Of a DNA stretch of 64,000 nt, positions 38,641 through 64,000 are shown in pieces. Numbering within the stretch: the first letter of the stretch is position 1; each line of letters opens with the position of its first letter. The notes below the pieces were generated by a model. The model was not told where the DNA came from. It saw only the letters and a list, made by a program, of their open reading frames with translations, and ran no database searches. A program made the position numbers and the translations under genes. The stretch comes from a bacterium (GTDB lineage Bacteria > UBA8248), in assembly GCA_965204535.1 (NCBI GenBank), contig CBDBEV010000001.1, positions 1,024,001-1,088,000 of the forward strand, given 5' to 3'.

Positions 38641-40629
<1,989 letters not shown>

Positions 40630-44918: not shown

Positions 44919-45380
44919 CGTTCTTCGCGCCGCCGACTCCCGGCGCGGTCCGGTTTTCGAGCGGGGAAATGCGGGGAGATGCGCGCAAATGCGGGGGCCG
45001 GAAAAATTTTTTAATTCGATAAATTTCTGAAAAAAATTCACGTTTTTCGTTGGGTTATCCGCATAAACCATTGAATAAAAATCCTGTATTCCGTTGCTTC
45101 GATCCCGAAACATTTTCAGGAATTTATCGATATTTACCGGATTTTTCAGGAATTCCACCGTTCTCCCCGCGCCTTCCCCCACCGGCGCCCCGCCGCCCGC
45201 TCCCGCATGACGCCATCGCCGGAAATTCGCCCGCTTCATTTTCCCCTCCTCCCCCTTCGACGGGAATGTTCGCTTCTCACGCGCGCGATTCTCGCCCGTC
45301 CCGCGAATGACCCGGTAACCGCAATTGCGGGGAAATGCGGACCCGGCCCCGACCGGGGAGGCGGGATAAAACCCCCCTGA

Positions 45381-45575
45381 GGGGGTTGTTGAAAAAGGCC
45401 CATCAATCGGGGTTGGCGCGTAGGGGCGGCCCCCCGTGGCCGCCCGTGTCGGATATGTCCATCTGCGTGGCTGTGCTTCGCAGGGAGAAGCATGGGGGCC
45501 ATGGACAGGCACAGGGGCCTGTCCCTACAAACCTTCTATTTGCAGGGTCCTGCGCAGACCTCTTCAACACCCCCC
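45381..45575. repeat. MITE-like element with IS1182-like ends carrying a GTAG REPIN
   Basis: GGGGTTGTTGAAAAAGG...CCTCTTCAACACCCC enclosing GTAGGGGCGG...GTCCCTAC. Confidence 0.75.
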
Positions 45576-45752
45576 TACGGGTTCGTCTTGATACGCGGGG
45601 CGTAGGGACAACCCCCTGCGCCGGTCCGGGAGCGCGGCCTGTCCTTGCGAGGCGGTGCGGTTTTGTTCGTCGTCCCGGCGTCATCGCCGGCCGATGCGGA
45701 AGGTGTTGCGGAGTGACGACCGGAGACGAATGCGGTTGCGTCCGCCGCCGGC

Positions 45753-46160
45753 TCAGCCGTCCTGACGCGCGGAGGGCGCGGACGTGCGGCGGATGAGCTC
45801 CCGGAGCGCCTCCATGGTCTCGCGGTGGCGCTCCCTCTGCTCCTCGCGTTCGGCGCGCAGCACGGCCATGGTTTCGCGGTGGCGCTCCTTGTGCTCCTCG
45901 CGTTCGGCGCGCAGCGCCTCCATGGTTTCGCGGTGCATCGCGTCCCGATGCCGCGCGGCCTGGCGCATGATGTAGAGGCCGTAGGCGATCAGTCCGCATT
46001 GCGCGGCCCCGACGAGGGCGGCCACCCACACGGAGGCCCACTGCGCGGCGAGGGCGGCTTCCTGGAGGGCGAGGCTCGCCTTTTGCAGGGCGAGGCTCGA
46101 TTGCTGTACGACGAGGTTTGATTGCTGTACGGCGAGGCTTGCGGTTTCGTATTCCGTCAT
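45753..46160 (-). CDS. Small TM protein with HRETM..LRAEREE repeats
   Basis: GGGAG RBS; heptad N-terminus, one TM, three 18-aa-period repeats. Confidence 0.7.
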   Translation of the reverse strand: MTEYETASLAVQQSNLVVQQSSLALQKASLALQEAALAAQWASVWVAALVGAAQCGLIAYGLYIMRQAARHRDAMHRETMEALRAEREEHKERHRETMAVLRAEREEQRERHRETMEALRELIRRTSAPSARQDG

Positions 46161-46251
46161 TCGATTTTCTCCCGTGAAGCCTCGTGAGCAGCAAGTCCGG
46201 TCAGTTTCGCCCAGGGCGGTGGAGAAGTCAAAGAGCGAACGCGAGTGAGGA

Positions 46252-46398
46252 GGGGGTGTTGAAAAAGGCCCATCAATCGGGATCGGCGCGTAGGGGCGGC
46301 CCCCCGTGGCCGCCCGTATCGGATATGTCCATCTGCGTGGCTGTGCTTCGCAGGGACAAGCATGGGGGCCTTGGACAGGCACGGAGGCCTGTCCCTAC
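46252..46398. repeat. Direct repeat of 45381-45528
   Basis: About 147-bp near-identical copy. Confidence 0.85.
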
Positions 46399-46461
46399 GG
46401 GTCGGAGGACGGACAACGCGAGGAGGCCCTGTTCCCGCGTTTCGCTGCGTTCTCCACGCAC

Positions 46462-46491
46462 AAAAAAACCGGGGGGCCGAAGCCCCCCGGT
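46462..46491 (-). terminator. Intrinsic terminator after the porin gene
   Basis: ACCGGGGGGC/GCCCCCCGGT stem with A7 (U-run on the minus strand). Confidence 0.8.
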
Positions 46492-46532
46492 CGTCGTCGC
46501 GTCAGGTGAGGACGCGAACGTCGGTCGTGCGG

Positions 46533-48396: not shown

Positions 48397-49383
48397 ATGC
48401 GAATCTGTACGTTCAGCCTGGCGGGCGAGGCGCGCATCGGCGTGTTGTTCGGGGAGAAAATCGCCGACCTGAAACTGGCCAGCGCCCTGTCGCTGGATGA
48501 GGAAACAGCGGCGGAGGCGATGGACCGCGTCGAGGCCGAGGTTCCCGATGATTGCGAGGAGTTCATCGAGGATCTGGAACTGAACCGCCCTCTCGCAGAA
48601 GAAGCCCTCGAAGCGCTCGAAGCGCATGGACGGAAAAAAGACCCGATTCGCTTCGACGGCATGCAGGTGGTCTATGAACCCGGTGAAGTCGAGATTCTCC
48701 CTCCCGTCGTGCCGGACACGCTGTTTTGCATGGCGAGGAACTACGTGGCCCATGCCGCCGAGATGGCGCGCACCGAAGTGGATGATTTCAAGGAGGAACT
48801 CCCGCTTTATTGTTTCCTGAAGCCCGCCACCTGCGTGAGCGGCCCGTATGAGGACGTGCCCGTCTATCCCTCGATGGAGAAGCTCGACTACGAGCTCGAA
48901 CTCGGCGTGCTCATCGGCCAGGGCGGCAAGAACATTCCGGTGGAAAGGGCCATGGACCACGTGGGCGGCTACACCCTGTTCAACGACATGAGCGACCGCA
49001 CGAGCCTCAACATGGGCAAGTTCATCGACTGGTACGCCATGAAGGCCCCGGACGGCTTCGCCCCCATCGGCCCCTACATCCTGCTCCCCGAGGAGGGCCT
49101 CGACCCCCACGATTTGAGGCTCAAGCTCTGGGTGAACGGCGAACTGAGGCAAGACGCCACAACGGGCGACATGGTCTGGCGGGTCGCCGAGCAGGTATCG
49201 TATCTCTCGGGGATAGCGACCTTGCGGACGGGCGACATCATCGGCACCGGCTCTCCTGCCGGCAACGCCGCCTCGTGGGGGGAATATCTCCAGGCGGGCG
49301 ACCTGATAGAGGGCGAAATCGAGGGGGTCGGGCGCCAGGCTTTTCGAATCAAGAGTGAAAGCCCCGAATATACGCCGGGCTAG
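48397..49383 (+). CDS. Fumarylacetoacetate hydrolase family protein
   Basis: RNYVAH, LDYELELG, FNDMSDR and GDIIGTGSP motifs. Confidence 0.9.
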   Translation: MRICTFSLAGEARIGVLFGEKIADLKLASALSLDEETAAEAMDRVEAEVPDDCEEFIEDLELNRPLAEEALEALEAHGRKKDPIRFDGMQVVYEPGEVEILPPVVPDTLFCMARNYVAHAAEMARTEVDDFKEELPLYCFLKPATCVSGPYEDVPVYPSMEKLDYELELGVLIGQGGKNIPVERAMDHVGGYTLFNDMSDRTSLNMGKFIDWYAMKAPDGFAPIGPYILLPEEGLDPHDLRLKLWVNGELRQDATTGDMVWRVAEQVSYLSGIATLRTGDIIGTGSPAGNAASWGEYLQAGDLIEGEIEGVGRQAFRIKSESPEYTPG

Positions 49384-49478: not shown

Positions 49479-50846
49479 ATGAATCCAGCCATAGCCGAAG
49501 CCGAATCCCTGCGGACGATGGACAAGGAGCACGTCTGGCATCCGCTCATGAACCATTCCGGGATGGAGGAAAATCCCCTCGACGTCGTGGTCAAGGCCAG
49601 GGGTTCGACCATCCAGGACGCCTCCGGCAAGGAATACATCGACGCCATGGCGGGGCTTTGGTGCGTGAACATCGGCTACGGGCGCGACGAGGTGGCCAAG
49701 GCGGCCTACGAGCAGATGTTGGAATTGGCCTATTACCCGCTGACGCAGGTGAACCCGCCCGCGGCGAGGCTTGGCCAAAGGCTCGCGTCCTTGCTGCCCG
49801 ATGGCGTCGAGCGCGTCTGGTTCGTGAACTCGGGCTCCGAAGCCGTGGACACGGCCATCAAGATCGCCCGCGCCTATGGACGCTTAAACGGCGGAAGGCG
49901 ATACAAGATCATCGCCCGCCACCAGGGCTATCACGGAGCGACCATCGGAGGCGCCAGCCTCACCGGCCAGACGCTCCGGCGCGCGATGTTCGAGCCGCTG
50001 CTCCCGGGCGTGATTCACGTGAGCGCGCCCTATTTCTACCGAAGCAACGCGGACACCGAGGAAGAACTCGCCCGCCGGTGCGCGGACGAGTTGGATGAGG
50101 TCATCCGCTACGAAGACCCCGAGACCGTGGCGGCGTTCATCGCGGAGCCCGTCATCGGCGGCGGCGGGGTGATTCCCCCGCCCGCGGATTACCTGAGGCG
50201 CATGCGCGAGGTGTGCCGGAACCACGGGGTTTTGTTCATCGCCGATGAGGTCATTACCGGCTTCGGACGCACGGGAGAGCTCTTCGCCTCGGACCTCTAC
50301 GAGATCGCGCCGGACATCATGACGATGGCCAAAGGGCTGAGCAGCGCCTATCTGCCCATCGGGGCGACGGCGACCACGAACGAGATATTCGAAGCCCTGA
50401 ACGCCGAGGGAGACTCAGGCTTTCTGCAGATAAACACCTACGGCGGACACCCCGTCGCATGTGCTGCGTCGCTCAAGAACCTCGAGATCATGATGGACGA
50501 GGAGTTGCCCGCGCGCGGCGCCAAGGTGGGCGCATATCTCGGCGGGCTTTTGGGAAAGCTCTCCGACATCCCCTGCGTGGGCGACGTGCGGGGCGTGGGC
50601 CTCATCTGGGGGGTGGAGTTGATAGAGGAAGACGGCGCGCCGCTGTCCACGGCGGCCACGGCGAAAGTGCTGGCATACGCGAAGGAGCAAGGCGTGATCT
50701 TCGGCAAGAACGCCGGCATCGCGGCGGGTCCTTCGAACACCGTCACCATCAGCCCGCCGCTGGTATTGACCGAAGAGGAAGCCGAGCGCGCCGCCTCCGC
50801 TCTCGACGCCGCCCTGCGCCGCGTTCAGGCGGAGAGCGGAGCCTGA
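49479..50846 (+). CDS. Class III PLP aminotransferase (omega-amine type)
   Basis: DAMAGLWCVN, SGSEA, YHG, DEVITGFGRTG and MAKGLSS motifs. Confidence 0.93.
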   Translation: MNPAIAEAESLRTMDKEHVWHPLMNHSGMEENPLDVVVKARGSTIQDASGKEYIDAMAGLWCVNIGYGRDEVAKAAYEQMLELAYYPLTQVNPPAARLGQRLASLLPDGVERVWFVNSGSEAVDTAIKIARAYGRLNGGRRYKIIARHQGYHGATIGGASLTGQTLRRAMFEPLLPGVIHVSAPYFYRSNADTEEELARRCADELDEVIRYEDPETVAAFIAEPVIGGGGVIPPPADYLRRMREVCRNHGVLFIADEVITGFGRTGELFASDLYEIAPDIMTMAKGLSSAYLPIGATATTNEIFEALNAEGDSGFLQINTYGGHPVACAASLKNLEIMMDEELPARGAKVGAYLGGLLGKLSDIPCVGDVRGVGLIWGVELIEEDGAPLSTAATAKVLAYAKEQGVIFGKNAGIAAGPSNTVTISPPLVLTEEEAERAASALDAALRRVQAESGA

Positions 50847-50895
50847 TGCGATAGCCGACAATTTTTCCCGCACATCATTTTCAGGGAGATTTCAT

Positions 50896-51567
50896 ATGTC
50901 CAACATCACCATGCTCGACATCGAGGATCTGAAGAAGACGAAGCTGGCGCCGTTCGTGAACAAGGCGCTCAAGCACCGCGCGCCCGACCCCGCCTTTCAC
51001 GCCATGCAGGGCCACAACGAGGATTTGGCGAAATCGATGTACCTCGCGTGGGGCACGGTGTTCAACACCGGCGTCATCGACCACAAGCTCAAGGAGATCA
51101 TCCGCGTTCAGCTCTCGCGCCGCGCCTTTTGCAACTACTGAGGGAACGTGCGCTCTGCTTCGGCGAAGCAGGCCGGCCTGACGGAAGAGATGATAGACGA
51201 GGGCATCGACAACTGGCGCGAGAGCGCGCTTTTCACCGAATCCGAAAAACTCGCGCTGGAATACAGCGAACTCATGGATTCGGAACCCGAGAAGATCGAC
51301 GAGGCCTTCTACGCGAGGCTGCGCGAGCACTACTCGGATGAGGAGATTGTGGAGCTCGGCTCTTTCATCGGCTTCAACGTGGGCTACCACACCTTTTTCA
51401 GGACGCTCGATTTCTACCCCATGTTCACCCCCGACGGCAGGCTGGTGAGTCAGGAGGAATCGCGCCGCATCTACGGCGATTGCCCCGTCTCGCACATGAG
51501 CGGGCCGCTTGAGCGCGCGCTCGAAGAGGGCGAGGCGCAACAGGCAGGCGGAGGCCAGGAGGGGTAG
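50896..51567 (+). CDS. AhpD/CMD-family selenoprotein (CxxU; in-frame TGA at 51139-51141)
   Basis: ORFs 50896-51141 and 51148-51567 share a frame; ungapped alignment to the downstream paralog across the TGA; downstream hairpin. Confidence 0.82.
51139..51180 (+). promoter_or_regulatory. Candidate bacterial SECIS element
   Basis: Stem CTGCTTC/GAAGCAG (51155-51171) with a G-led loop about 21 nt after the UGA. Confidence 0.65.
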
Positions 51568-51569
51568 CC

Positions 51570-52175
51570 ATGCCGATCATCGAGCCGCTCGAACCCGAAG
51601 GAATTGAAGAGAAGAACTGGAAGCGCGTCATGGAGCGCACCGCCGAGACCCAGGCGCCCGATGAGCTTTTCTCGCGCATCATGGCCCATGCGCCCGGCTA
51701 TGCCGCCAACCTGCACGACGCTATGCACCGCTCCCACGCCATGGGCGGGGTGGACCACAAGCTCAAGGAGATGGTTCGCATCCAGCTCGCCAGGACCGCG
51801 CAAGACACCTACTTCGCGAACCTGCGCTCCGAGCAGGCGAAAAAAGAGGGCCTGACGGAAGAACGCATCGAGGCCGCCTGCGGCGATTTCGAGAACGACC
51901 CGCAGTTCACCGAAGCCGAGAAGTGGGCGCTCCGCTATTCCTACTGGATGTACCGGGACGCAACGAAGCTCGACAAGGGATTCTACGACGAAGGCAAGAA
52001 GCACTTTTCAGAAGCCCAGATCATGGAGATCGGCGCGATGGTGGCGATTCACTATGGTTTCCAGGTCTTCATGCGCACGCTCAAGGCCTATCCGCTCCAC
52101 GATCCGGAGGGAAACCCGGTGACGCAGGCGCAGTCCGAGCAGATTTACGGGAAAGACGTGCCCTCGCCCGCCTGA
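51570..52175 (+). CDS. AhpD/CMD-family paralog lacking the redox motif (DTYF)
   Basis: DHKLKEMVRIQLA and FTEAEKWAL; co-linear with the upstream gene. Confidence 0.85.
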   Translation: MPIIEPLEPEGIEEKNWKRVMERTAETQAPDELFSRIMAHAPGYAANLHDAMHRSHAMGGVDHKLKEMVRIQLARTAQDTYFANLRSEQAKKEGLTEERIEAACGDFENDPQFTEAEKWALRYSYWMYRDATKLDKGFYDEGKKHFSEAQIMEIGAMVAIHYGFQVFMRTLKAYPLHDPEGNPVTQAQSEQIYGKDVPSPA

Positions 52176-52204
52176 GTTTCGCCATCGAGCAATAAGCGCC
52201 CGCC

Positions 52205-52453
52205 GGCGGGGTTGTTGAGAAAGCCCCCTTTTTCAGGGGATAAAGGCACCCTCCCTACCCCCCCCTGTCGGGGTTGTTGAAAAAATCCTGATATCGTGAT
52301 TCGGTGTATGGAGCTGACCAGGGAAGAGACTGTCGGGACAGGTCGCGACCTGTCCCTGCGAGGCGTTGTGGTTTTGTTCGTCATTCCGGCCTTGAGCCGG
52401 AGTGACGGCGGTGGCCGGTTCCGGCCGAGGATGACTTTTTCAACAACCCCGCC
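52205..52453. repeat. MITE-like element with IS1182-like ends, inside a terminator-like hairpin
   Basis: GGCGGGGTTGTTGA...TCAACAACCCCGCC, flanked by CGCCCGCCGG/CCGGCGGGCG. Confidence 0.7.
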
Positions 52454-52498
52454 AACCGGCGGGCGAAAAGATACGTCGATGAGAGGAATTTCGAGGTC

Positions 52499-53311
52499 AT
52501 GCCGATACTCTTGCGTGACATCTGGGCAATAGAAAATCTCACGGATTTCAAAGTCCACTACGCCCGATGGAACGGCGCATCCCAGCCTTTGGAGGTTTGG
52601 TTGAACGACAGGCGCGCCTGGCGAGGTTGGCAGGAATACCGCCCAAAACGTAACGATTTCAACAGGCAGTATATTTTCTCGTTGATGCAGTTTTACCACG
52701 AAACCGATATCTGGCTATTCGGCGGTGTATTCGAGGTCGTGGAACGCCATGACGATAGATACGAAGTTGAACTGACCGATCAAGGAAAAGAATTCATCGG
52801 TCGCTTGAAGTTGCGCTCCCCATTTCGAGGCCGGGGAACACGTCTTAATTTCGAGAATCATTTTGAACGATTCAAAGTTCAGGAAATTCTGCGGGAGCCG
52901 TATTCGGGGCGTTCTTTTCCCGGTTATGAAGATGTCGACTTGTCGTTCGCAGAGTTAGAAACACTGGTGCGAAATGACAGGCCGGACTGGAAAGGCGCGC
53001 TTGAGAGCGTGAAAGGCGTCTATTTGATCACCGACACCAAAGCGGAAAAAAGGTATGTGGGCTCCGCCTATGGCGATCAGGGAGTGTGGTCCCGTTGGAG
53101 TCAATACATCGAGAGCGGGCATGGCGGAAATGTCGAACTGAGCGAGTGGCTCGACGCTCAAGGAGGGGTGGATTACGGTCGTGTTCATTTCCGTTTCACT
53201 CTTTTGGAGCATCGGGCTGCTCGAGCGCCTGACGACCTTATCCTTGGGCGCGAGGAATTCTGGAAGCGCATACTCATGACGCGCGGCAAGCAGGGGTTCA
53301 ATTGCAACTGA
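52499..53311 (+). CDS. GIY-YIG nuclease family protein
   Basis: GVYLI...YVGSAYG...RW...GGN...E...N motifs; less GC-biased codons. Confidence 0.85.
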   Translation: MPILLRDIWAIENLTDFKVHYARWNGASQPLEVWLNDRRAWRGWQEYRPKRNDFNRQYIFSLMQFYHETDIWLFGGVFEVVERHDDRYEVELTDQGKEFIGRLKLRSPFRGRGTRLNFENHFERFKVQEILREPYSGRSFPGYEDVDLSFAELETLVRNDRPDWKGALESVKGVYLITDTKAEKRYVGSAYGDQGVWSRWSQYIESGHGGNVELSEWLDAQGGVDYGRVHFRFTLLEHRAARAPDDLILGREEFWKRILMTRGKQGFNCN

Positions 53312-55428: not shown

Positions 55429-55458
55429 AAAAGCGCCCGCCGTCCCGCGGGCGTTTTT
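55429..55458. terminator. Bidirectional terminator between amt and the TA pair
   Basis: AAAAGCGCCCGC/GCGGGCGTTTTT. Confidence 0.65.
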
Positions 55459-55880
55459 CATGCGTGGGAATACAGGGTGAAATCCCTGTCGAGCCATAAG
55501 ACATGGAACATGGTTCTGTCTCGATATCCCACCATGGGGCGTCTGCCGAAAAAACGGAAAGCGAGGAGGTTCACCTCGTCCGTGATGTGTGGCGGCATCG
55601 ATGCCTTGATTTGATTTCGAGGTATCTTTTCATATCCGGTTGCGTGTCTGTTCGAGCTCGCGATCTGATTCCAGGTCAATCGACTCAATTTGTCGAGGGT
55701 GTCGGCGAAGGCGGCTTTTTCGTCTCTTTGACAATTTTTCAGGGAATGTTCCCTTTGACTCAAATAGCGAAGCGAAAACTTGGGCGGGAGCGTTTGCGGG
55801 GAAACGCCGCGAGAAGAACCGGGTTTTATTCTCTCCCCTTTGTTCCTTCTGTCTTTGGGCCTAATCCGCCTCTTCGCCAT
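55458..55880 (-). CDS. Putative toxin paired with a Panacea antitoxin
   Basis: Basic 140-aa protein overlapping the antitoxin stop by 20 nt; C-terminal FHVLWLD..F.LY.H. Confidence 0.65.
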   Translation of the reverse strand: MAKRRIRPKDRRNKGERIKPGSSRGVSPQTLPPKFSLRYLSQREHSLKNCQRDEKAAFADTLDKLSRLTWNQIASSNRHATGYEKIPRNQIKASMPPHITDEVNLLAFRFFGRRPMVGYRDRTMFHVLWLDRDFTLYSHA

Positions 55881-56313
55881 TTTCCATCTGGGCCTTGAAA
55901 TACGTTTTCATGGATCGGTTCGAGATGGCTTCCCTCTTCTCGGAAGCGACTCGCCAAGGCGCATCTTCGTGCGTCATGTTTCTCAGCTTCCAGGCCGAAA
56001 ATTGTCCGTAGACGTCATAGACCTCATCGAGAAATTCCTTTTCTTCGTCGTTGAATTTGCTGAAATCCATGTTTTCGGGGTTCGGAATCGGAGCGGAGCC
56101 GTATTCCTTGTATTCCCGGAACAGGTTCGGGATGACGGGACCATACAGCCATGCCTCGATGCGGTCCTCGAACAGCGGCTCGTCATAAAGCGCCAGATGA
56201 TAGCCCTGCGCATAGTAGACGAGCTTTTGCAATTTCATGTTCGAGATCAGATCGCCCGCGTCCTCATCCTGAAGCGAGAGAAAATACTCGGCTACGTCTT
56301 TGCAGGTAAGCAA
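55861..56313 (-). CDS. Panacea-domain (DUF4065/SocA-like) antitoxin
   Basis: ISNMKLQKLVYYAQG, IEAWLYGPV and LRNMTHEDAPW motifs. Confidence 0.9.
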   Translation of the reverse strand: MLTCKDVAEYFLSLQDEDAGDLISNMKLQKLVYYAQGYHLALYDEPLFEDRIEAWLYGPVIPNLFREYKEYGSAPIPNPENMDFSKFNDEEKEFLDEVYDVYGQFSAWKLRNMTHEDAPWRVASEKREAISNRSMKTYFKAQMENGEEAD

Positions 56314-61119: not shown

Positions 61120-62679
<1,560 letters not shown>

Positions 62680-62993
62680 TGCTGAAAGATTCGTTTTCAA
62701 AAAGCACGGGAGGGGAGAGAGGGCGTTTTCATCATCTGGTGAGAACGAGCCGCTCTCTTGCCTGAGGATCGTGCGACGCCGCCTCGCGCCTTTGGCGCAT
62801 GGCAGGATGATTGCAAAACGAATCGGCGCTTCAAGGTCGATGGCCCGTCTCGGGCCGTCCATATCCTGTTCTTGATAATTACGCCACAGCGGGTATGCGG
62901 ATTGTCCCGGATTCGAGATATGCGAATTCCGGCTGAATGCCTGGGTGAGGCCCGATGCGGAAATGGAGTTTCTTGCCGCGCGGGCGAGGTCGC

Positions 62994-63070
62994 GGGCCTA
63001 TAGCTCAGTTGGTCAGAGCGCGCGCCTGATAAGCGCGAGGTCCCTGGTTCAAATCCAGGTAGGCCCACCA
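62994..63070 (+). tRNA. tRNA-Ile(GAT)
   Basis: Cloverleaf with GAT anticodon and CCA end. Confidence 0.97.
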
Positions 63071-63193
63071 TATCGGAATGGATGGGGATGATACGCATGG
63101 CATGAAACGCCGGAAGCGATGGCGTGGATGGACCGTTGAGCGGAACCGCGCAGGCTCATCGTCGCGGGCCGGTCCCTGAAGCGAATTCGAAAT

Positions 63194-63269
63194 GGGGATG
63201 TAGCTCAGTCGGGAGAGCGCCTGGTTTGCAACCAGGAGGTCGGCGGTTCGAGCCCGCTCATCTCCACCA
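63194..63269 (+). tRNA. tRNA-Ala(TGC)
   Basis: Cloverleaf with TGC anticodon and CCA end. Confidence 0.97.
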
Positions 63270-63423
63270 TCTGGATCGGCGGTCAGTGGCGATGAATTTG
63301 AATTCTTCAGCAAATCGGGCGGGAGTTTCTTCCGCCTTTTGCTCTTTGACAATCGAATCGCGTGAATTGGCATAATCATTGAAGGCTCTCAGTATTGACT
63401 GAGAATCTGAAATCTCAAGATTC

Positions 63424-64000
<577 letters not shown>

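Follow-up and report, generated by a model that had tools for sequence, protein, structure and literature searches.

The 64,000-nucleotide stretch of bacterial DNA analysed here (the window, from the lineage UBA8248) carries two adjacent paralogous genes on the forward strand, the first of which very likely encodes a selenoprotein. Gene A (50896..51567; subunit A) was delineated by translation through a single TGA, a PF02627 match, conservation and a structure model, and would specify a 223-aa selenoprotein of the AhpD/CMD fold. Gene B (51570..52175; subunit B), a paralog devoid of Cys, begins only 2 nt downstream of gene A and encodes 201 aa with the signature D79-x-Y81-F82-x-x-x-R86. The two open reading frames (ORFs) called within gene A are one gene whose UGA is very probably read as selenocysteine (Sec). 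Its product is likely an oxidoreductase using a selenolate and is predicted to form a heterodimer with the product of gene B. The selenoprotein itself is not new, and its pairing with gene B is the less known part.

The 223-codon frame at 50896-51567 contains one internal stop, the TGA at 51139-51141 (codon 82), which falls in the motif C79-N-Y81-U82-G-N-V-R86 (51130..51153, forward strand), followed by a serine. A plain ORF finder using table 11 consequently cuts the gene into ORFs at 50896-51141 (81 aa) and 51148-51567 (139 aa). An earlier note on this DNA had proposed that both are a single frame split solely by a TGA at the second position of a CxxC motif, and translation confirmed it. In the read-through product, the PF02627 match crosses the TGA (residues 49-122, E 3.5e-7), and a Shine-Dalgarno-like AGGGAGA recognized by eye at 50883..50889 (forward strand) lies ahead of the ATG at 50896. 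The same note predicted that gene callers would miss the protein; indeed, public protein sets hold it split in two halves or miscalled with Trp, which is of direct concern to annotation.

The TGA is shared across relatives and is not a private variant. It occupies the Sec column in 80/80 of the best GTDB loci, which were retained from 216 confirmed ones and bear titles naming, among others, Nitrospinota, Tectomicrobia, Rhodospirillales, Burkholderiales, Acidimicrobiia and Chloroflexota, and it is preserved in 30/30 loci from relatives. Similarly, a single in-frame TGA was present in 43/43 carriers when 51 genomes of the same phylum were searched and in 17/17 close orthologs from 201 genomes of another order. 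Decay of the downstream half, which the earlier note had raised as a sign of a false reading, was not seen: among the 19 closest loci, dN/dS amounts to 0.068 upstream of the TGA vs 0.073 downstream, i.e., purifying selection is the same on both halves. Cys occupies the Sec column in more distant homologs, as a genuine Sec site led the note to expect. A profile search, of which the top 150 representatives were kept, gave 162 aligned segments: 70 present C-x-x-C, 10 stop exactly before the column, 3 show C-x-x-W and 21 are of the D-x-x-F partner type. Residues E67, C79, Y81 and U82 are invariant in 15/15 rows, the records with W being counted as TGA. Metagenomes provided 80 further loci (75 tandem, 1 fused), which were chosen by a fused query and thus kept out of the co-occurrence counts; 69 carry the TGA, 7 are cut before the codon and 4 were scored with gene B alone. 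In two RNA-library runs and a further run, contigs cross the TGA codon of gene A without difference. The RNA-library contigs, which come from one study and from relatives 91-96% identical, cover genes A and B and bridge their junction; they document the presence of the relatives' sequence and carry no inference on transcription, strand or level.

These observations bear on the possibility that the TGA is a true stop, the locus being a pseudogene, a sequencing error or a source of two small proteins by re-initiation at the GTG at 51148. Such a scenario would agree with the two ORFs obtained under table 11 and with the many N- and C-terminal halves held in protein databases. However, the TGA is invariant, both halves are equally selected, the RNA-run contigs cross the codon without difference and the hairpin described below covaries. 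Moreover, the codon of Val85 is GTG in just 7/34 copies, so that the restart codon is not kept. We thus deem a true stop extremely improbable.

A SECIS-like hairpin is located at 51155..51171 (forward strand), inside codons 87-92. Its stem pairs 51155-51161 with 51165-51171 by 7 Watson-Crick pairs and its loop is GGC (51162-51164), with the loop G 21 nt after the UGA, which bears out the perfect 7-bp stem and G-led loop that the earlier note had placed about 21 nt downstream. The loop of such elements is expected 16-37 nt downstream of the UGA, and a perfect stem of at least 7 pairs with a G-led loop in this interval follows 1.4% of the 1444 ordinary TGA stops of the same genome. The folding energy is ordinary when compared to shuffles (z +0.44 to +1.12 in five windows) and Rfam at gathering thresholds returned no match at the gene A locus. 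The evidence from conservation across relatives is stronger than that from the fold in a single genome. Codons 88-91 are identical in 34/34 copies that share <85% nucleotide identity and range from 0.25 to 0.97 in GC3, and the best conserved position outside these codons reaches a pairwise codon identity of 0.70. The silent third base of Ser87 forms a pair with the second base of codon 92, and the two covary in 80/80 loci (T-A in 62, C-G in 18), the C-G form turning the Gln of codon 92 into Arg or Gly. Among 21 chosen sequences, 98.6% of the cells are paired with 11 two-sided changes, counts that refer to related sequences and not to independent events; pairing was as high in 0/500 shuffles and lower in every slid control. 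The codons of the Cys-less paralog B that match the hairpin vary freely. For selenium biology, the hairpin of gene A represents an unusually clean natural SECIS, in which a silent site is coupled to an amino-acid change.

The source genome (G000) encodes selA, selB, selD and tRNA-Sec (selC), all above curated cut-offs, in line with the Sec machinery that the earlier note had proposed to look for, and its selD carries its own in-frame TGA. Among 36 genomes carrying gene A, selA was found in 32. The four others, small MAGs whose completeness is unstated, have selB in 0/4 and a tRNA-Sec over the cut-off in 1/4, and this lack of selA in 4/36 carriers is the sole result counting against the Sec reading. 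The UGA might otherwise be read as Trp in the source organism (code 4 or similar), as seven full-length database records of homologs with W at the Sec column would have it. However, TGA is the commonest stop of this genome, where it terminates 1444/2812 long frames, and release factor 2 is present, which excludes a genome-wide UGA=Trp code. The sole UCA-anticodon tRNA called is the tRNA-Sec. Moreover, P0005, one of the W records, shares 99.5% identity with locus L101, where the DNA reads TGA at this place, and the W of P0005 is thus a gene-caller choice. The Trp reading has, in our opinion, a negligible probability. The recoding that the earlier note proposed is supported by the presence of the Sec machinery, the kept TGA, the Cys of distant homologs and the constraint on the downstream half. 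From this comparative evidence, the UGA of gene A very likely codes for Sec, and read-through at codon 82 appears almost certain.

Selenoproteins of this kind have been reported repeatedly. Zhang, Fomenko and Gladyshev (2005) described a 'CMD domain-containing protein' selenoprotein with a CxxU motif from the Sargasso Sea, and in the available part of this source two of the four entries of the set (AACY01716242 and AACY01688758) carry C-N-Y-U-G-N-V-R-S-A-S-A-K together with the same hairpin DNA (PMC1088965). Two GOS reads also show C-N-Y-U-G-N-V-R-S-A-S-A-K (PMC2398784, in the portion available). As far as these portions permit a comparison by eye of motif and hairpin, gene A falls in the same subfamily as the 2005 and GOS entries. 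The earlier note rightly stated that Sec-containing AhpD-like proteins are known from metagenomes, but the exact subfamily had already appeared among published selenoproteins in 2005 and again in 2008. The published entries differ from the present locus in being read fragments, and the class there, from what is available of it, also held His-type paralogs. In the available portions of the two texts (PMC1088965; PMC2398784), no mention was found of a Cys-less gene downstream, of fusions or of the replacement of His by Arg. CxxU AhpD-like proteins figure among the commonest marine selenoproteins in a table of the accessible GOS text (PMC2398784), and a review of 2026, as excerpted, lists AhpD-like and CMD-like CxxU families and considers the exact functions of such oxidoreductases unknown (PMC13188914). 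The accessible text on BSepDB ranks UBA8248 genomes among the largest selenoproteomes, and one such genome is the source of locus L130, whose protein is 84% identical (PMC13326102). A term search of the BSepDB supplement (PMC13326102) did not find gene A, which the database itself may list. What sets the present case apart from the known selenoprotein is a conserved Cys-less partner, two fusions, a stand-alone basal form and a His-to-Arg site. A search of the accessible literature for an AhpD/carboxymuconolactone selenoprotein forming a heterodimer with a paralog found no paper, and we provisionally regard the pairing of a Sec gene with a Cys-less gene as undescribed.

The products of genes A and B are 36% identical (E 2e-44), and profile-profile comparison aligned them over 200 gap-free columns (E 2e-62). 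The gap-free alignment to the next gene that the earlier note had announced stands for residues 1-194 but is broken by one gap near the end. In the note, gene B served solely as an alignment aid. It is constantly paired with the Sec gene. Gene B directly follows gene A in 78/80 GTDB loci, at a distance of -9 to +65 nt, the 2 exceptions ending at contig edges; it does so in 39/41 cases in genomes of the same phylum and in 16/17 cases in the other order, with all misses at contig ends. No gene B without gene A was seen in the 51 own-phylum genomes. Gene B presents no Cys at either motif position, and its fixed residues are E67 (78/78), D79 (76/77), Y81 (77/77), F82 (73/77) and R86 (77/77).

In a quick tree of 84 rows, the A genes, the B genes and the stand-alone Sec genes L052 and L053 form one branch (SH-aLRT 98), within which the B sequences are a single branch (SH-aLRT 95). 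Several groupings within B parallel those within A. No B-type gene was found in the genomes of the basal Sec genes L052 and L053, which are 92% and 100% complete, respectively. Such stand-alone genes in near-complete genomes indicate that the AhpD-fold scaffold can function without B. They also suggest, the root of the tree not being fixed, that the pair arose by duplication from a homodimeric ancestor. Fusions of A with B were identified in 13 proteins and at locus L186. They sit at two places on the tree of B domains and a single origin was rejected (p-AU 0.0014); judging from this tree, at least two independent fusions of gene B with the Sec gene have taken place.

Some individual records of this family deserve mention. 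The Acidimicrobiia-titled pair at L078:6001-7199 nests, in the quick tree, among Nitrospinota- and Tectomicrobia-titled sequences for both A and B, which may reflect either a joint transfer of the two genes or an artefact of binning. At L234:3073-4188 and L235:5969-7021, a CxxU gene whose Arg lies at or close to +4 is followed by a Cys-less paralog unlike B, and the two-domain proteins P0193, P0208 and P0263 combine one domain of C-x-x-E type with one of C-x-x-C type; given these pairs and proteins, the active/inactive arrangement may have arisen several times. The linkers of one fusion group (P0012, P0014, P0047, P0054 and L186:4583-4738) have the motif P-G-E-S-R-D-P in common, possibly a translated palindromic repeat that fills the intergenic gap. 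Finally, P0063 (181 aa) has an A-like N-terminus with a B-like motif and C-terminus, and is either a recombination product of the tandem genes or an assembly chimera.

The monomer model of A (pLDDT 85.7) adopts an AhpD-like fold matching 6K40, 3C1L, PA0269 and Bmp8. The AlphaFold2 model of the natural fusion L186 reached a pLDDT of 87.8 and a pTM of 0.85, with a disordered linker of 51 residues. The A:B complex was folded with an orthologous pair, namely P0005, whose record has Trp at the Sec column, and its partner from locus L101. It scored 0.91, compared to 0.00 for the best of 3 controls, a score that does not separate a heterodimer from a homodimer; the mark applied to it is reached by 116/157 solved pairs and 2/215 mismatched pairs. 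The runs share at least 96% of their contacts and the pLDDT of the partner is at least 89. The predicted interface is the symmetric helical one and leaves the CxxU outside, hence the success of the complex may reflect its likeness to solved homodimers.

This last point leaves room for a different view of the pair, in which A is a real selenoprotein acting as a homo-oligomer and B a separate, merely co-regulated non-redox protein, either a binder or another enzyme using Asp79, Tyr81 and Arg86. The basal Sec genes do stand alone, B has its own fixed residues (E67, D79, Y81 and R86) with a dN/dS of 0.137, and the complex test is blind to the difference between hetero- and homo-oligomers. On the contrary, the absence of B without A in the 51 own-phylum genomes, the two independent A-B fusions, the several B groupings that mirror A in the quick tree and the confident packing of the fused domains in the L186 model all speak against this view, and we judge the homo-oligomer unlikely.

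The predicted heterodimer would resemble a known eukaryotic architecture. Human Sestrin2 provides the top fold matches of the A-B fusion model (E 2e-4, TM 0.5-0.6, rmsd 11-15 A, 10-13% identity), although any two-domain model of AhpD-like fold would tend to match it. In the available text, Sestrin2 is described as a pseudo-symmetric pair of AhpD-like domains that overlays the 2PRR dimer, one domain being redox-active and the other having a remodelled Cys-less site with Asp residues (PMC4674687). Sestrin keeps the first Cys and the His, whereas B keeps Glu, Tyr and Arg, and Pfam detected PF02627 (CMD) alone, with no Sestrin family, on A and on B. We take the likeness of the A/B pair to Sestrin as a parallel in architecture that implies no kinship. 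The best reading is that A would be a selenolate oxidoreductase in an active/inactive heterodimer of Sestrin-like architecture. If B is an obligatory subunit, A expressed alone would fail, and the pair would offer a two-gene model of the passage from an AhpD homodimer to an active/inactive pseudo-dimer, the route proposed for Sestrins. A bolder scheme, to which we attach little probability, is that duplication of a stand-alone AhpD-fold selenoprotein gave a selenoenzyme/pseudoenzyme heterodimer in which the Asp-Tyr-Arg pocket of the twin binds a metabolite or partner and controls or directs the Sec site, the Sestrin design having then been reached independently, more than once.

The assignment of A to AhpD/CMD-family enzymes made in the earlier note holds for the CMD domain (PF02627) and for the E...C-x-Y-U register, but not for the relay His, which is Arg, nor for the AhpD models, which remain below their cut-offs. 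A shares the all-helical fold of the AhpD-like proteins (M. tuberculosis AhpD, P. aeruginosa PA0269, D. radiodurans 6K40 and R. eutropha 2PRR; TM 0.55-0.66). The accessible description of PA0269 gives a relay of Glu36, Cys48, Tyr50, Cys51 and His55, the latter presented as invariant in the AhpD-like peroxidase-related family (PMC3141380). These residues map to E67, C79, Y81, U82 and R86 of A, so that the Glu at -12, the first Cys, the Tyr and the second Cys/Sec are in register with PA0269 whereas the relay His is replaced by Arg86 in 34/34 copies. Residue 86 is Arg in 58 and His in 4 of the 70 Cys homologs, and Arg86 is thus a feature of a broader clade that does not result from the presence of Sec. 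A further differs from AhpD-like proteins in being paired with a Cys-less partner, and no ahpC neighbour was seen. No NCBIfam model exceeded its cut-off for A: TIGR01926 gave 37 bits vs 81.8 and TIGR00778 no match. With its relay His changed to Arg and no AhpD-type NCBIfam model at its cut-off, A is, by these sequence criteria, not a canonical AhpD. The best NCBIfam match (E 8e-20) is NF053654, the GroundWater_YciW (seleno)protein, a selenoprotein family of the same fold; membership of A was rejected at 71.3 bits vs a cut-off of 310. A has an invariant His165 in its last long helix; in B this position is Gln and a His occurs at 161. His165 is not conserved among the Cys homologs of A, and is a candidate replacement for the lost relay His.

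Sec usually takes the place of the attacking Cys, which makes U82 the likely nucleophile and C79 the resolving thiol. In the mechanism that we propose, the hairpin in codons 87-92 would, with near certainty, recruit SelB-tRNA(Sec) and direct Sec insertion at codon 82, and the resulting product would measure about 25 kDa. By analogy with related enzymes, it is quite likely that Sec82 would then attack an oxidised small substrate, Cys79 resolving the intermediate to a selenenylsulfide that an unlinked cellular thiol system would re-reduce. Glu67, Tyr81 and Arg86 would act from the AhpD relay positions, the Arg stabilising an anion instead of shuttling protons. Modelling also makes it likely that B fills the second place in the usual AhpD-like dimer, which would leave one redox site per dimer. 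As Glu67, Tyr81 and Arg86 are preserved in B and Asp79 is fixed there, the pocket of B probably retains a non-redox job in binding or scaffolding. The substrate of A could well be an organic hydroperoxide or disulfide, the default inferred from the family, or possibly an electrophile from small-molecule catabolism.

The same architecture might also serve a Bmp8-like reductive dehalogenase, in which Sec would strip a halogen from an aromatic ring, as in the animal deiodinase. Bmp8 reportedly acts by a reductive debromination mechanism. The debrominase (6OHI/6OHJ) has the C-x-Y-C/U motif and its size in common with A, although it uses Cys rather than Sec, and 6OHI ranks first by sequence when the family profile is compared with the PDB (E 3e-13), besides being a fold match. 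Close relatives also occur in RNA-library contigs of sponge-metagenome-labelled runs from one study. However, the match to Bmp8 is at family level (~20% identity) and AhpD-like peroxidases are equal or better by fold. The motif C-x-Y-C-x-x-H of Bmp8 is not matched by A, where the His three places past the second Cys is Val in the HMMER alignment. No brominated-pyrrole cluster was seen nearby, and no halogenase or bmp-type gene was found among the recurrent neighbour clusters annotated. The family is, moreover, also common in plankton- and groundwater-type records. Dehalogenation thus seems rather improbable as the role of the selenolate oxidoreductase favoured here.

Upstream of gene A lie an FAA-hydrolase-family gene (48397..49383, forward strand), a lineage-specific neighbour outside the conserved unit, and directly before A a class III aminotransferase (49479..50846, forward strand), also lineage-specific (10 of the 39 loci clustered). 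Across lineages, the neighbours of the A-B pair vary between FAA hydrolase with aminotransferase III, SDR with HMGL-like and cupin genes, TctC receptors and alpha/beta hydrolases. These recurrent neighbours serve the uptake and catabolism of small molecules and are specific to their lineages; no fixed pathway context was found among them, none being general. No reductase, thioredoxin or AhpC was present among the recurrent neighbours annotated (top clusters). A search of the ESM Atlas with a B homologue retrieved 'hypothetical' CMD clusters alone. A promoter scan gave nothing above chance, and a terminator-like hairpin after gene B (52208..52227, forward strand) is weak, 5 such sites being found where 4.1 are expected by chance.

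The source genome harbors 18 members of the fold family (loci L135-L150). In thirteen, the second position of the motif is a TGA (12 CxxU, A among them, and one UxxU), 2 are CxxC and 3 are Cys-less; for annotation, 13 such Sec genes among 18 family members are of consequence. Most of these Sec paralogs show C-x-x-U-x-x-H-N with a G-led loop at +22, and two pass the TIGR01926 cut-off.

Several other features of the window were noted. Short intergenic repeat elements occupy 52180-52460. Run X11 shows an increase in depth from 63 to 372 there, many contigs have their sole match in this stretch, and similar-looking stretches occur near 45000-46500. The 270-aa ORF at 52499-53311 (forward strand) has no Pfam match; its C-terminal part may resemble a GIY-YIG nuclease motif. 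On the reverse strand, a gene with a Panacea/SocA antitoxin domain (55861-56313; PF13274, E 4e-26) is followed by a 140-aa ORF with no Pfam match (55458-55880), and the two are possibly a toxin-antitoxin pair. A TPP riboswitch (40534-40624, reverse strand) lies upstream of an ORF that we take to be ThiC-like. The end of the window, from 61120 to 64000 on the forward strand, is formed by an rRNA operon with tRNA-Ile and tRNA-Ala.
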